From the NCBI RefSeq assembly GCF_000026545.1, contig NC_011601.1: DNA of 64,000 nt; one strand, given 5' to 3'. Shown here piece after piece: positions 34,930 to 60,367 of the stretch. This DNA comes from Escherichia coli O127:H6 str. E2348/69 (GTDB lineage: Bacteria > Pseudomonadota > Gammaproteobacteria > Enterobacterales > Enterobacteriaceae). A program made the translations under genes and the position numbers. Under the pieces are notes generated by a model. The model was not told the origin of the DNA. It did no database searches and saw nothing but the letters and a program-made list of their open reading frames with translations. Numbering within the stretch: position 1 is the stretch's first letter; the number at the start of each line of letters is the position of its first letter.

Positions 34930-35154
34930 GATGGAACTCCCGTCTGTCAATCTTATGATTTTTGGCCGTGTCTGCGGCATGGGATAACAATGCCATCAAG
35001 TGAATTTATATGCAATAAATATGATTAAATAATTTAAGTGAAATAAAAAAAGACGGACAACTTAGTGAGTTGTCCGTCTTCATTATAAGAATTTATGCAC
35101 TATGTAGGCCGGATAAGGCGTCCGCGCCGCATCCGGCATCAGCACGCAGCCAAA

Positions 35155-48246: not shown

Positions 48247-49146
48247 TTATGCAGAGAAAAAGGCGATGAGAATCGGCACTAACAGACTAAGAATAAAACC
48301 GTGAACAATCGCCGCCGGGACCATATCCAGCCCGCCTGTACGTTGAAGAACGGGCAGGGTGAAATCCATCGACGTCGCACCGCATAAGCCCAGTGCAGTA
48401 GAGCGGCTACGGCGAATCAGCCCAGGGATTAACATAATAGCAATCAGCTCACGGGCCAGATCATTAAAAAACGCCGCGCTCCCGATTACCGGACCAAAAG
48501 ATTCGGTCAATAAAATACCGGAAAGAGAATACCAGCCGAAACCGGAGGCCATTGCCAGCGCGGTATTGATGGGAAGATCAAGAATAAAGGCGTTAATTAA
48601 ACCACCAATTAATGAACTGGCAACCACCACCACGGCGACAATCATTCCCCGGCGATTAAGGACAATCTGCTTTAAGGTCATGCCATTATTGCGCAACTGA
48701 ATACCGACGAGGAAAAGTAGCAGAATTAAGGTGTATTCACTGGCTTCGGTCGCGTGTTGTAAGAAAGCCAGTCCACTCAGACCAATGGCAAAACCAATCA
48801 CTACTACGCCGCACAGTTTTAGCGACTCCAGCGCCATCGCAATACGCGACGGGAGTTTTTCTTGCTGATGGTGGTTGCGCCATGGCAGGCCGCGCTCCAG
48901 CCACATCAGGGCGGCAATATTACACAGTAAAATAACGGTAATACTGACGGCAGAATAATGCAGAATTGCCAACAAGTTACTGGCGAGGTTATCGAGAAAC
49001 GCCAGACTGATACCCATAAAAAAGAGAATGAGGTAAACCATCCAACTTAATAGCTGATTAATAACTCTTAATGCAGCTTTTTGGCGAAGCGGAATGAGGT
49101 AACCCACAATCAGGGGAACCAGAATGATTAACAGCCCAGAAAACAT
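48247..49146 (-). CDS. lysO: lysine exporter LysO (YbjE)
   Basis: 299 aa membrane protein. Confidence 0.85.
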   Translation of the reverse strand: MFSGLLIILVPLIVGYLIPLRQKAALRVINQLLSWMVYLILFFMGISLAFLDNLASNLLAILHYSAVSITVILLCNIAALMWLERGLPWRNHHQQEKLPSRIAMALESLKLCGVVVIGFAIGLSGLAFLQHATEASEYTLILLLFLVGIQLRNNGMTLKQIVLNRRGMIVAVVVVASSLIGGLINAFILDLPINTALAMASGFGWYSLSGILLTESFGPVIGSAAFFNDLARELIAIMLIPGLIRRSRSTALGLCGATSMDFTLPVLQRTGGLDMVPAAIVHGFILSLLVPILIAFFSA

Positions 49147-49339
49147 GAAAAACCAGTCCTTGCAAAGAAGATTCGAAATGCGCGATGACACACTACTGAA
49201 AGCGGAAGGACGAGTAAAGTTGCAATTAAAAGGAAATGTTATGCATAAGGATCGGTAGGGTATTCATTTTCATTTAAAGATATTCTTGCGCTTTAATTAC
49301 AAACCGCACCGGTGTTGGTGGCGTCAAAATCGCCGAGGC

Positions 49340-49550
49340 GTTCCCTGAAGGCCGGGGCAGCCCACATGGATGTGGGCTGAGGGCGCGTTTTACAGGGATG
49401 TTACCTCGCGCCCGACCCGGTAGCCGTAAGGGATAAGTCGAGGGCACCGCGCAGCGGCGATTTTGTTCGCCAGAGCCCGGGGGGGGCAGGGGGCGGCGGC
49501 GATTGGCCGCCCCCTGCGCGCTCCCTGCGCCAGTGACTATATGTGGCTTA
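49340..49550. repeat. GC-rich palindromic repeat cluster (REP/BIME-like)
   Basis: Several GC-rich imperfect palindromes (for example CAGCCCACAT/ATGTGGGCTG) in the intergenic region between lysO and aqpZ. Confidence 0.35.
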
Positions 49551-49629
49551 ACACATCAAGGAGCGCAACAGGAAGATGAATCAATATATTTAAAAAAGGC
49601 CTGACATTGCGCCAGGCCTTCTGCGTTAA

Positions 49630-50325
49630 TTAATTACGTTTTTCCAGCAGAGTCCGGTAAATCAGACCACCGATAATACCGCCGACAATTGGCACCACCC
49701 AGAAGAACCATAGTTGCTCTAATGCCCAGCCGCCCTGGAAGATAGCAACCGCAGTACTGCGCGCCGGGTTAACGGAAGTGTTAGTCACCGGAATACTGAT
49801 TAAGTGAATCAGGGTTAAGGCCAGACCAATGGCAATTGGCGCAAAACCAGCAGGAGCGAATTTGTCAGTTGCGCCGTGGATCACCAGCAGGAAACCTGCA
49901 CTCAATACCAGTTCAACTACCAGCGCGGAAAGCATGGAATAACCGCCTGGTGAATGCTCGCCATAACCGTTAGAAGCAAAACCGCTGGCTGCCGCGTCAA
50001 AACCCGTTTTACCACTGGCAATTAAATACAGCAGCGCCGCCGCAACAATACCGCCGACAACCTGGGCAATTACGTAGCCAACGACTTCTTTTGCCGGGAA
50101 ACGTCCGCCAGCCCATAAACCAATAGTGACCGCCGGGTTAAAATGACCACCAGAAATATGACCAACAGCAAAGGCCATTGTCAGAACGGTCAGACCGAAC
50201 GCCAACGCCACGCCGGCAAAACCAATGCCTAATTCCGGGAAGCCTGCGGCCAGTACGGCACTACCACAGCCGCCAAAAACAAGCCAGAAAGTACCAAAAC
50301 ATTCAGCTGCTAATTTTCTGAACAT
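49630..50325 (-). CDS. aqpZ: aquaporin Z
   Basis: 231 aa, two NPA motifs. Confidence 0.9.
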
Positions 50326-50750: not shown

Positions 50751-52409
50751 ATGATTCTTGAGCGCGTTGAAATTGTGGGTTTTCGCGGTATCAACCGTTT
50801 GTCGTTGATGCTGGAACAAAACAACGTCCTGATTGGGGAGAACGCGTGGGGTAAATCCAGCTTGCTGGACGCCTTAACCCTGCTGCTATCGCCAGAATCA
50901 GATCTCTACCATTTTGAGCGCGATGATTTCTGGTTTCCGCCAGGAGATATCAACGGGCGAGAACATCATCTGCATATTATTTTGACCTTCCGCGAATCGC
51001 TGCCAGGCCGACATCGGGTTCGCCGCTATCGGCCGCTGGAAGCGTGCTGGACGCCATGCACCGATGGTTATCACCGTATTTTTTATCGTCTGGAAGGGGA
51101 GAGTGCGGAAGACGGCAGCGTGATGACACTGCGCAGTTTTCTCGATAAAGACGGACATCCGATTGATGTTGAGGATATTAACGATCAGGCTCGTCATCTG
51201 GTGCGTTTAATGCCGGTGCTGCGTTTGCGTGATGCCCGTTTTATGCGCCGTATTCGTAACGGCACGGTGCCAAATGTCCCCAATGTGGAAGTCACCGCGC
51301 GCCAGCTCGATTTCCTCGCCCGTGAGTTGTCCTCACATCCGCAAAATCTCTCTGATGGACAGATTCGTCAGGGACTTTCCGCAATGGTGCAACTGCTTGA
51401 GCATTATTTTTCTGAGCAGGGAGCTGGACAGGCGCGATATCGTTTAATGCGGCGGCGAGCCAGCAATGAGCAACGAAGCTGGCGCTATCTGGATATCATC
51501 AACCGGATGATTGACCGACCTGGAGGGCGCTCGTATCGGGTTATTTTGCTCGGCCTGTTTGCTACTTTATTGCAGGCAAAAGGCACATTGCGACTGGATA
51601 AAGACGCCCGTCCATTGTTGCTGATCGAAGATCCAGAAACCCGTTTGCACCCCATTATGCTTTCAGTTGCCTGGCATCTGTTGAACCTTCTGCCATTGCA
51701 GCGCATCGCTACTACCAACTCGGGAGAGTTGCTTTCGTTAACGCCGGTAGAGCATGTTTGCCGACTGGTACGTGAGTCCTCTCGCGTTGCCGCCTGGCGT
51801 CTGGGACCGAGTGGCTTGAGTACCGAAGATAGCCGACGCATATCCTTTCACATTCGTTTTAACCGTCCGTCATCGCTGTTTGCTCGCTGCTGGCTGTTGG
51901 TGGAAGGGGAAACGGAAACCTGGGTTATCAATGAACTGGCGCGTCAGTGCGGACATCATTTTGATGCCGAAGGGATCAAGGTCATTGAGTTTGCCCAGTC
52001 CGGGCTAAAGCCACTGGTTAAATTTGCCCGGCGAATGGGGATTGAATGGCATGTACTGGTCGATGGCGATGAAGCAGGGAAGAAATATGCCGCTACGGTA
52101 CGCAGCCTGTTGAATAACGATCGGGAAGCCGAACGAGAACATTTAACGGCGTTACCGGCGCTGGATATGGAACATTTTATGTATCGCCAGGGATTTTCCG
52201 ATGTGTTCCACCGCGTGGCGCAAATCCCGGAAAATATACCGATGAATCTGCGCAAAATTATCTCGAAAGCGATCCATCGCTCTTCCAAACCCGATCTTGC
52301 CATTGAAGTGGCAATGGAGGCCGGACGTCGTGGTGTGGACTCCGTACCGACGCTGCTGAAAAAAATGTTCTCACGCGTGCTGTGGCTGGCGCGCGGTCGG
52401 GCCGACTAA
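50751..52409 (+). CDS. ybjD: OLD-family ATPase/Toprim protein YbjD
   Basis: 552 aa, N-terminal ATPase (GENAWGKSS), conserved chromosomal synteny. Confidence 0.85.
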   Translation: MILERVEIVGFRGINRLSLMLEQNNVLIGENAWGKSSLLDALTLLLSPESDLYHFERDDFWFPPGDINGREHHLHIILTFRESLPGRHRVRRYRPLEACWTPCTDGYHRIFYRLEGESAEDGSVMTLRSFLDKDGHPIDVEDINDQARHLVRLMPVLRLRDARFMRRIRNGTVPNVPNVEVTARQLDFLARELSSHPQNLSDGQIRQGLSAMVQLLEHYFSEQGAGQARYRLMRRRASNEQRSWRYLDIINRMIDRPGGRSYRVILLGLFATLLQAKGTLRLDKDARPLLLIEDPETRLHPIMLSVAWHLLNLLPLQRIATTNSGELLSLTPVEHVCRLVRESSRVAAWRLGPSGLSTEDSRRISFHIRFNRPSSLFARCWLLVEGETETWVINELARQCGHHFDAEGIKVIEFAQSGLKPLVKFARRMGIEWHVLVDGDEAGKKYAATVRSLLNNDREAEREHLTALPALDMEHFMYRQGFSDVFHRVAQIPENIPMNLRKIISKAIHRSSKPDLAIEVAMEAGRRGVDSVPTLLKKMFSRVLWLARGRAD

Positions 52410-56571: not shown

Positions 56572-56643
56572 TTTTTGAGATAAAAATGCCAGCCGATCGG
56601 GCTGGCATTTTGCCTTTAGGATGTACACAATGAGACAGAAGAG

Positions 56644-56868
56644 CTATGCGACTGCCGCTTCTACTTCGACGGGCACAATAACACTGGCGTGATTGCCTTT
56701 TGGCCCCTGGTGGACATCAAACTGAACGGATTGTCCAGCTTTTAGCGTTCTGTAACCATCCATCTGAATGGTGGAATAATGAGCGAAAATATCTTCGCCG
56801 CCGCCTTCAGGGCAGATGAAACCAAACCCTTTGGCATTGTTGAACCACTTAACAGTACCCTTTTCCAT
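56644..56868 (-). CDS. cspD: cold-shock-domain protein CspD
   Basis: 74 aa, KWFN..KGFGFI motif. Confidence 0.9.
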   Translation of the reverse strand: MEKGTVKWFNNAKGFGFICPEGGGEDIFAHYSTIQMDGYRTLKAGQSVQFDVHQGPKGNHASVIVPVEVEAAVA

Positions 56869-57190
56869 GCTTCGACATCCTTCGCAAATCTTATACAAGT
56901 AAGATGGAATAAACCGGGGTCAGAGAGGGGGCTGTTCAAAACCTCGCCAACTCTAGAAATACAATTTAGAGAATTAGGGCGAGCCGTCAAGCATTTGACA
57001 GGGGGCAGGGGGCAGGTATGAATCAAAAATTTGAAGCAGTTAACGCTATTGACAGGAATGTGACAGATGTCGCTGATGCCAACGATAGATGATAGTTATC
57101 TATCATGTGGAGTAGATTGGTCAGGCAAATAAGCTCTTGTCAGCGGCAGGGCGTTCTGCCGATAACCGTAACCGAAGATGATAACTGACA

Positions 57191-59880: not shown

Positions 59881-60055
59881 ATGGGGGGAGGAGGTTCAGA
59901 CCCTTTTTTTAATGATGATGCTAAGTTATTGATAATTAGTGCTGCGGGTAGGTAAGGATAAAAAAGGGTGGCAGCAGGAGATTGAGATGGTTTTGCTTTA
60001 TTAACAACGGGCTAAACGTGTAGTATTTGAGTTCACTGCCGTACAGGCAGATAAA

Positions 60056-60120
60056 ATGCGAAAAAAAACTCGTACTTTCGTACGAGCTTTTCTTTAAAGA
60101 TGGCGGTGAGGGGGGGATTG
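60056..60120. repeat. upstream copy of the ~63-bp direct repeat: terminator hairpin plus tRNA-Ser 3'-end-like sequence
   Basis: Near-identical to 60234-60298, which is the 3' end and terminator of serW; the two copies are separated by ~113 bp. Confidence 0.4.
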
Positions 60121-60279
60121 ACTCGCTTCGCTCGCCCTGCGGGCAGCCCACTCACTGCGTTCGTGGTCTGTCCAACTGGCTGCGCCAGTTGTCGAACCCC
60201 GGTCGGGGCTTCTCATCCCCCCTGGAGTGCAATATGCGAAAAAAAAGCTCGCACTTTCGTACGAGCTTTTCTTTAAATA

Positions 60280-60367
60280 TGGCGGTGAAGGGGGGATTCG
60301 AACCCCCGATACGTTGCCGTATACACACTTTCCAGGCGTGCTCCTTCAGCCACTCGGACACCTCACC
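60280..60367 (-). tRNA. serW: tRNA-Ser (anticodon GGA)
   Basis: 88-nt minus-strand sequence GGTGAGGTGTCCGAGTGG...GGTTCGAATCCCCCCTTCACCGCCA with long variable arm. Confidence 0.9.

Follow-up and report, generated by a model that had tools for sequence, protein, structure and literature searches.

The short interval between the genes lysO and aqpZ of Escherichia coli O127:H6 str. E2348/69 raises the question of what a GC-rich, strongly self-pairing stretch of intergenic DNA represents, and on which strand and in which molecule its structure might matter. The window considered here is a stretch of 64,000 nucleotides from contig NC_011601.1 (assembly GCF_000026545.1), and the E2348/69 locus is 100% identical to the window sequence. 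In the list of open reading frames (ORFs) and in the RefSeq annotation, the repeat is bordered by lysO (48247..49146/49191) and aqpZ (49630..50325), both on the minus strand. A preliminary description of the sequence had placed a cluster of GC-rich palindromes at 49340-49550, likened it to repetitive extragenic palindromic (REP) sequences or bacterial interspersed mosaic elements (BIMEs), and considered it probably ordinary, a judgment that is fair insofar as the element, the E. coli repeat TRIP1a, is already catalogued and needs no new name.

The presence of the cluster itself is confirmed by the GC profile, a repeat finder, and fold energies. The GC content amounts to 0.63-0.72 over 49300-49549 versus 0.33-0.45 in the flanks, and the repeat finder locates a perfect inverted repeat of 10 nt at 49358-67/49370-79 (100%), together with repeats of 19 nt at 49479-97/49506-24 (84%) and 10 nt at 49518-27/49557-66 (90%), and a long-range repeat of 16 nt at 49325-40/49450-65 (88%). 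A 269-nt segment reaches a predicted fold energy of -149.1 kcal/mol on the plus strand (z -5.5) and -133.9 kcal/mol on the minus strand (z -5.1), and none of the 200 dinucleotide shuffles generated for each strand was equally stable. The palindromes therefore lie where they had been described, although the true unit is somewhat larger, comprising the 266 bp of 49304-49569.

It is virtually certain that this unit is TRIP1a, among the three to five locus-specific copies of the TRIP1 repeat in E. coli. TRIP1 repeats were described by Rudd in 1999, and a new survey covering 6725 genomes has been published by Li et al. (2024, PMC10888264), who distinguished five locus-specific types (TRIP1a-e), predicted a very stable "double-Y" RNA fold, gave K-12 TRIP1a as 915016-915281 (266 bp, 62-65% GC), placed it 31 bp beyond the apparent aqpZ terminator, and stated that the function of the repeat is not known. 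The assignment is made because the window element shares the locus, length, and GC content of the K-12 element and 96% of its sequence (256 of 266 bases, 96.2%); it is likewise situated between ybjE/lysO and aqpZ, directly beyond the aqpZ terminator, which the terminator scan missed owing to its 9-nt loop.

The preliminary description was thus correct in recognizing a GC-rich, palindromic, extragenic, and dispersed repeat, but it named the wrong family. When the REP consensus comparison was run, neither half (GCCKGATGNCGRCG, CTTATCMGGCCTAC) was found in 49192-49629 within 2 mismatches, and the REP-derived Rfam model naRNA4 has no match at the TRIP1a stretch, while a canonical REP elsewhere in the window, at 35104-35147 with CTTATCCGGCCTAC at 35104-35117, coincides with an naRNA4 match. 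These results, together with a copy number of about 3 per genome, exclude REP/BIME identity. A lack of conservation in other genomes, which the same description would also have taken as evidence against its reading, was not observed: of 5426 complete E. coli genomes, all but one (5425) contain a match to the intergenic query, at a median of 3 and a maximum of 8 places each, and relatives occur in other genera. A BoxC (PIT/TMECO) or intrastrand-triplex motif, suggested by a G5...G5...C5 arrangement, was likewise rejected, as the published consensus, CCCTCNCCC-N3-6-GGGNGAGGG-N3-GGGNGAGGG (PMC4666352), differs from this arrangement and is absent from the TRIP1a stretch in a comparison made by eye, with no pattern scan.

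The evidence for a conserved structure is derived from an alignment of 50 distinct copies (281 columns) from Escherichia, Klebsiella, Enterobacter, Pseudescherichia, Raoultella, Kluyvera, and Pseudocitrobacter. RNAalifold predicted 62 pairs on these copies, 17 of them with compensatory changes, and once the GC hairpin had been corrected manually, the count came to 66 pairs, distributed over 12 helices (Table 1). Standard pairs fill 98.2% of the cells of this fold, compared with 37-43% when partners are slid by 1-3 columns; changes on both sides are found in 20 pairs; the covariation score is 0.229, against no more than 0.059 for the slid controls; and in 500 shuffles the observed pairing percentage, cell count, or covariation score was never reached. 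With respect to individual elements, one pair of hairpin 1 changes from A-U to G-C between Escherichia and Klebsiella copies, pair 94/103 of hairpin 2 is A-U in 28 copies and G-C in 22, and the terminal stem covaries with CGUUCAC...GUGAACG and GCGCUCU...AGAGCGC in other subfamilies. The well-aligned helices 1-10 contain 42 G.U cells at 10 positions versus a single A.C cell, and pairing is therefore selected on the plus strand of the window, antisense to lysO and aqpZ. It is highly probable that the repeat constitutes a single structured module read on this strand, composed of a multibranched core with two CANGGANG hairpins, a 12-bp GC hairpin, and a terminal stem-loop, and we infer that the selected molecule is RNA. 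Two other interpretations of the core were set aside, namely the tandem-G.A P1 closing stem of the minimum-free-energy fold and the Rfam alignment, since covariation backs a different multibranch, and a sigma-54 promoter look-alike, TGGCGTCAAAATCGC, which lies within helices H1/H2.

Table 1. Coordinates of TRIP1a, its structural elements, and adjoining signals in the window.
Feature	Position	Strand	Basis
TRIP1a repeat, solo "R module" (K-12 NC_000913.3 915016-915281)	49304..49569	+	locus and identity
Multibranched core domain	49319..49472	+	RNAalifold and pair counts, 50 copies
Helix H1	49319-23/49468-72	+	50-copy fold
Helix H2	49327-32/49458-63	+	50-copy fold
Helix H3	49333-39/49437-43	+	50-copy fold
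Helix H4	49342-45/49430-33	+	50-copy fold
Helix P2	49350-56/49416-25	+	50-copy fold
Hairpin 1, 9-bp stem, CAUGGAUG at 49365-49372, GGA 49368-70	49358..49379	+	perfect inverted repeat
Hairpin 2, CAGGGAUG at 49393-49400, GGA 49396-98	49381..49413	+	covariation, loop conservation
Small hairpin CCGC-GCA-GCGG (helix 10)	49447..49457	+	compensatory G-C to A-U in 9 copies
12-bp GC hairpin GCAGGGGGCGGC / GCCGCCCCCUGC (helix 11)	49486..49517	+	4 covarying pairs
Terminal stem-loop CGCUCCC...AGGAGCG (helix 12)	49519..49565	+	covarying
Deletion-prone interval between direct repeats GGCCGGGG (49350-57) and GCCCGGGG (49475-82)	49350..49482		
Predicted sigma-70 promoter of lysO/ybjE, TTGACG-19-TGTAAT	49296..49327	-	genomic SELEX list, prediction only
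aqpZ intrinsic terminator, GGCCUG-9 nt-CAGGCC then U6	49592..49618	-	read from sequence

The sequence of the core is constrained as well. Between E. coli and E. albertii, the core (49320-49481) retains 96.3% identity, where third codon positions of the adjacent lysO and hcp reach 71-80%; in a divergent E. coli the figure for the core is 98.1%, and over both comparisons the third codon positions span 71-86%. The 3' loops and right flank of TRIP1a are far less conserved than the core. Gene conversion among copies does not explain this pattern, because copies at different loci of one genome are more divergent than copies at one locus in different species. The conservation indicates constraint but not its kind, because the neighboring 5' region of lysO is equally conserved.

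The core belongs to the TwoAYGGAY class of RNA motifs (RF01731). In an Rfam scan by E-value, the one relevant match is this model on the plus strand of the window copy, at 49324-49463 with 30.6 bits, below the 43-bit gathering cut-off (E-value of 0.043 for a 3-kb search and 0.92 for all 64 kb), and the relationship is settled by the scores of relatives, which are composite elements carrying a left (L) and a right (R) module: at locus L047 the R module reaches 51.5 bits and the L module, on the other strand, 37.8 bits, and a score of 49.2 bits, above that cut-off, is found for the L modules of L018, L061, and L066. The distinguishing features of the class are present in TRIP1a itself, with AUGGAU in hairpin 1 and AGGGAU in hairpin 2, the latter a variant also found in seed members (ACAGGGACGUA, AAUCAGGGAUGAUU), and with P2 and the covarying outer helices H1-H4 enclosing both hairpins. 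The sequence CATGGATG of hairpin 1 is invariant in all 50 copies, and CANGGANG is kept by hairpin 1 in 50 and by hairpin 2 in 49 of the 50, with variation at the two N positions only; four GGA triplets occur on the plus strand of TRIP1a, two of them in these hairpin loops at a GGA-to-GGA spacing of 28 nt. The Psychromonas seed members of the Rfam family are themselves multicopy repeats with ACAUGGAUGU and ACAGGGAYGU loops. Three loci from three subfamilies (L011, L021, L043) contain an insert of about 75 nt at the same position of the core, which ends in a third hairpin, GCCCCAGGGATGGGGC or GGCCCATGGATGGGCC, with another CANGGANG loop.

These loops bear on a possible protein partner. CsrB and TwoAYGGAY share the Rfam clan label CL00106. 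The hairpin consensus described for RsmE/CsrA by Schubert and colleagues in 2007 is reportedly CANGGANG, and the consensus obtained by Dubey and colleagues in 2005 through systematic evolution of ligands by exponential enrichment (SELEX) is said to be RUACARGGAUGU, to which hairpin 2 (UACAGGGAUGU) is equal. A single CsrA dimer can reportedly bridge GGA spacings that include 28 nt, as Mercante and colleagues are said to have found in 2009. The TwoAYGGAY motif is recorded from gut metagenomes, Clostridia, and gamma-proteobacteria (Weinberg et al. 2010) and has been proposed as a CsrA sponge by Gardner and Eldai (PMC4333381).

The distribution of the repeat extends well beyond the present locus. 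Other E. coli copies are located in the dusC-yohP interval and downstream of putP, and a more distant TRIP1-like copy lies between yegH and asmA; this last site is polymorphic (L022, L067-L069): in some genomes REP-like sequences flank the copy, K-12-like genomes have a truncated one, and others contain a RelE/ParE toxin-antitoxin pair. When one genome per species was scanned for an exact pattern, copies were recovered in Escherichia species, Pseudescherichia vulneris, Klebsiella, Raoultella, Kluyvera, and Pseudocitrobacter, as well as 7 copies in Enterobacter sp. ENT03, and a distant search of a plasmid collection yielded matches in Klebsiella records, at as many as 13 places per record. A phage or plasmid origin was nevertheless rejected, since TRIP1a has no match in the phage collection and the four "plasmid" records inspected are mislabelled chromosome fragments with housekeeping genes. 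Klebsiella-type copies with Klebsiella-like flanks were also encountered on contigs of unrelated phyla, in metagenome-assembled genomes labelled "Desulfacinum" (L009) and "Sporobacter termitidis" (L064), and are most likely the result of bin contamination.

The relatives in other genera provide clues to how the repeat may have spread. In Enterobacter ENT03 and P. vulneris, the repeated unit measures 630-690 bp rather than about 270 bp, and composites of 630-710 bp, seen across Enterobacter, Pseudescherichia, Pseudocitrobacter, and Kluyvera, consist of a left GC-rich arm, an AT-rich center, and a right arm that matches TRIP1. The left arm occurs in six lineages and starts sharply at GTTCCGTTCAC; its bottom strand carries a closing stem, GGA hairpins, a GC hairpin, and a terminal stem, as in the right arm, and Rfam assigns it to TwoAYGGAY on the opposite strand. 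The composite is therefore interpreted as two homologous modules arranged head to head, with TRIP1 as a solo right module. The composites of P. vulneris, Escherichia sp. ESNIH1, and Pseudocitrobacter are bounded by 18-bp inverted repeats, which at L061 are perfect over 18 bp (TAATGCTGGTCAGTTAAG) with a flanking 13-bp duplication, and direct duplications of 15 bp (L013), about 11 bp (L020), and 9 bp (L011) are present elsewhere, the target duplications splitting terminator-like palindromes. The ends of IS4 in K-12 are TAATGCCAGTCAGTTAAG and TAATGCCGATCAGTTAAG, inside a 12-bp duplication, and IS4-like inverted repeats surround L010, L012, L013, L018, L020, and L061. On the basis of these ends and target duplications, the bounded composites are IS4-type MITEs (miniature inverted-repeat transposable elements) carrying two TwoAYGGAY modules, and the composite interior has no similarity to IS4. 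It is fairly probable that TRIP1a is the solo half of such a composite, with the IS4 ends lost and the E. coli copies fixed, descent from a MITE being an extrapolation from the other genera.

Two further aspects of the composites concern transcription signals. At L010, L012, and L020, the right IS4-type end and an internal complementary copy form a hairpin of 12 bp with a T-rich tail behind it; the scan calls this a terminator, and it could end a transcript of the right module. Divergent promoters in the center of the composite were considered and rejected, the promoter scan having found none and the top strand of the ENT03 element carrying terminator-like hairpins instead.

As regards transcription of the window copy, an RNA-seq compendium lists nine short plus-strand transcripts within K-12 914914-915346, including two with a start at 915000 that extend into TRIP1a; the Term-seq tables of Adams (2021) have no entry for lysO, aqpZ, yohP, or dusC. 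In the mechanism proposed here, the plus strand of TRIP1a would be transcribed, its two GGA hairpins, 28 nt apart, would be bound by one CsrA dimer, and the module would serve as a small RNA that binds or titrates CsrA, or would place any transcript containing it under CsrA control. Taken as a whole, the combination of TRIP1a identity, a plus-strand fold, an MITE-derived origin, and a CsrA-binding RNA is the best overall explanation and is held with moderate confidence. Its final element, a plus-strand RNA whose GGA hairpins bind a CsrA dimer, is tentative when taken separately, being suggested by the loop motif. The most far-reaching version, according to which TRIP1/TwoAYGGAY modules are genes for small CsrA-binding RNAs that have spread in Enterobacteriaceae as cargo of IS4-type MITEs, so that K-12 would possess, in addition to CsrB and CsrC, two intact copies (TRIP1a, TRIP1c) of an unrecognized class of CsrA-recruiting RNA modules or mobile CsrA decoys, is speculative and rather doubtful.

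A number of observations weigh against this explanation. A consensus promoter scan of the TRIP1a region found no promoter on either strand, and the best plus-strand candidate found by eye, TTCATT-17-TTTAAT, is weak and ends 7 nt before 49304; the compendium transcripts are short, and unannotated transcripts of this kind are generally seen in few samples. In a gene table of CsrA crosslinking and immunoprecipitation sequencing (CLIP-seq), ybjE and dusC are unbound, a result that is not decisive, as reads from repeats may have been discarded. The window copy itself scores below the Rfam cut-off, single-stranded DNA also tolerates G.T pairs, so that the strand asymmetry is no proof of RNA, and IS4-like ends were found near no E. 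coli, Klebsiella, or ENT03 copy, nor do IS4 terminal repeats occur within 4 mismatches near the window copy or within 3 in the whole window. Moreover, TRIP1a is absent from 30% of genomes, and both orientations are found at the TRIP1a and TRIP1c loci (PMC10888264); in O157:H7 (L071, C1-057), TRIP1a is inverted at the same locus and the immediate flanks differ. The whole TwoAYGGAY-type core has been deleted between GGCCGGGG and GCCCGGGG in K-12 TRIP1b, downstream of putP (L073), and an identical, independent deletion is found in a reverse-oriented TRIP1a allele between lysO and aqpZ of strain 4750 (L072). The repetition of this event looks like recurrent slippage across the palindrome, and the core deletions, together with the genomes devoid of TRIP1a, imply that the element is dispensable. 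The O157:H7 locus also lacks a window-type aqpZ terminator hairpin, and the annotation treats its aqpZ as a pseudogene interrupted by an internal stop.

Some of these facts suit the main alternative, in which TRIP1a is a selfish or relic repeat whose fold was needed only for propagation, as single-stranded DNA hairpins or in a transposition or replication intermediate, and whose fixed E. coli copies merely provide homology for rearrangements. This alternative accounts for the full-length relatives being MITEs with IS4 ends and target duplications in terminator-like palindromes, for E. coli copies that vary in presence, orientation, and internal deletions, and for the lack of a detected promoter or CLIP signal; it also fits the inversions between TRIP1a and TRIP1c, which reach up to 1.3 Mb in strain SMS-3-5 (PMC10888264). 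However, IS4-type (DDE) transposition needs only the terminal repeats and not some 270 bp of internal structure, and the two modules of the composite have diverged in sequence yet keep their fold, each with GGA loops on its own outward strand. In addition, the immobile orthologous core is far more conserved than synonymous sites, and identical loop decamers are found in Psychromonas and, as stated by Rfam and Weinberg et al. (2010), in Clostridia. We regard a relic as rather unlikely, about as probable as the binding of CsrA.

An element acting in cis at the DNA level is improbable. Such an element would supply the -35 hexamer of lysO, insulate lysO from read-through out of aqpZ, or bind nucleoid proteins in the manner of BIMEs. 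The relevant site, TTGACG-19-TGTAAT, is an RNA polymerase sigma-70 site in the genomic SELEX list of Shimada et al. 2014 (PMC3946193); its -35 hexamer falls within TRIP1a (reverse complement of 49322-27) and its -10 hexamer in the flank (reverse complement of 49296-301). As a side effect within the preferred explanation, too, the 5' end of the repeat may supply the lysO -35 hexamer of this predicted site and may shape the architecture of the lysO promoter. In favor of a role in cis, lysO and aqpZ are not predicted to be co-transcribed in the compendium, and both strands fold stably. Nevertheless, a role of this type accounts for no more than some 10 bp of a conserved fold that spans 266 bp, the same module resides at unrelated loci in both orientations, and the asymmetry between G.U and A.C cells counts against a symmetric duplex or cruciform.

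The remaining alternatives can be dismissed briefly. A REP/BIME cluster that stabilizes upstream mRNA or binds gyrase or IHF would agree with a GC-rich, palindromic, extragenic position just downstream of a stop codon and with relatives that adjoin true REPs, but the sequence tests described above and the 266-bp unit refute it. A small protein is scarcely credible, since the 57-aa ORF of the mechanical ORF list (49274..49447, minus strand) and the 5-aa ORF on the plus strand that follows AGGAG, with ATG, at 49559-49579 are countered by single-base indels that distinguish the subfamilies (alignment columns 84, 88, 111, 117, 124) and rule out coding, by substitutions that are pairwise-compensatory rather than codon-like, and by a tiny ORF that is different in every copy. 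A coding sequence for an "uncharacterised protein" is annotated across a repeat copy in K. aerogenes NCTC10006 (L007, 2928-3509), in favor of a protein if taken at face value and probably spurious. A 5' leader or riboswitch with a sequestered Shine-Dalgarno sequence was also rejected, as AGGAG is one strand of a covarying helix in which other subfamilies have GUGAAC or AGAGCG instead, and the downstream "ORF" of 5-9 aa is a different one at each locus.

Several features elsewhere in the window were recorded in passing. These include the RybB small RNA at 22501-22579 on the minus strand (Rfam, 105 bits), a tRNA at 60283-60367 on the minus strand with an adjoining RtT-like element at 60101-60237 that scores exactly at the Rfam cut-off, and a weak CRISPR-repeat-like match at 60031-60058. 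At 56580-56973 on the minus strand, the model of the cspA thermoregulator 5' untranslated region reaches 41.6 bits against a cut-off of 78 and presumably marks the leader of a cspA paralogue. Just beyond aqpZ, a 552-aa ORF (50751-52409, plus strand) has an N-terminus resembling a P-loop ATPase (GENAWGKSS).

As far as the literature searched shows, no earlier account exists of the structured strand, of a fold tested by covariation, of relatives beyond E. coli, or of the links to TwoAYGGAY, the CsrB clan, and IS4-type MITEs. For the function of TRIP1, there is now a specific strand and fold to probe, for which CsrA is the obvious candidate partner, given that both loops match its hairpin consensus and that Rfam places the motif class in the CsrB clan. 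The mobilization route has likewise become specific, with IS4 ends and IS4-type target duplications in sister genera, and the orphan TwoAYGGAY motif would gain a tractable model organism. TRIP1a is also relevant to genome stability, because its recombination with TRIP1c gives rise to megabase inversions (Li et al. 2024).

In comparison with known systems, the element of the window is TRIP1a of E. coli itself, agreeing with it in locus, 266-bp length, GC content, and predicted "double-Y" fold, without any difference. REP/BIME and BoxC sequences resemble it as GC-rich extragenic palindromic repeats of enterobacteria, but TRIP1a lacks their consensus sequences and is 6-7 times longer and about 100 times rarer, the REP/BIME unit of 35-40 nt being present in hundreds of copies per genome and TRIP1a in few. 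The full-length relatives share with IS4 and IS4-derived MITEs the 18-bp inverted repeats, an IS4-like subterminal hairpin, and long target duplications, whereas the window copy and all E. coli copies are devoid of IS4 ends. The resemblance to CsrB, CsrC, and Rsm sponges lies in hairpin-loop GGA triplets in a CANGGANG context and in the common Rfam clan; those RNAs, however, contain 9-22 GGA sites rather than the two (optionally three) of a TRIP1 module, so that the many-site character of a sponge is not found here, and TRIP1a has no BarA/UvrY-type promoter or demonstrated terminator, while TRIP1 by contrast is multicopy and was probably carried on an MITE. With TwoAYGGAY, TRIP1a shares two adjacent A-N-GGA-Y hairpins inside a closing stem and the same ACAUGGAUGU and ACAGGGAUGU loop contexts as the Psychromonas seed members; the known members of that family, from Clostridia, gut metagenomes, and Psychromonas, are AT-rich and have a single long P1 stem, whereas the enterobacterial modules possess a covarying multibranched closing region and additional 3' domains, a GC hairpin and a terminal stem.

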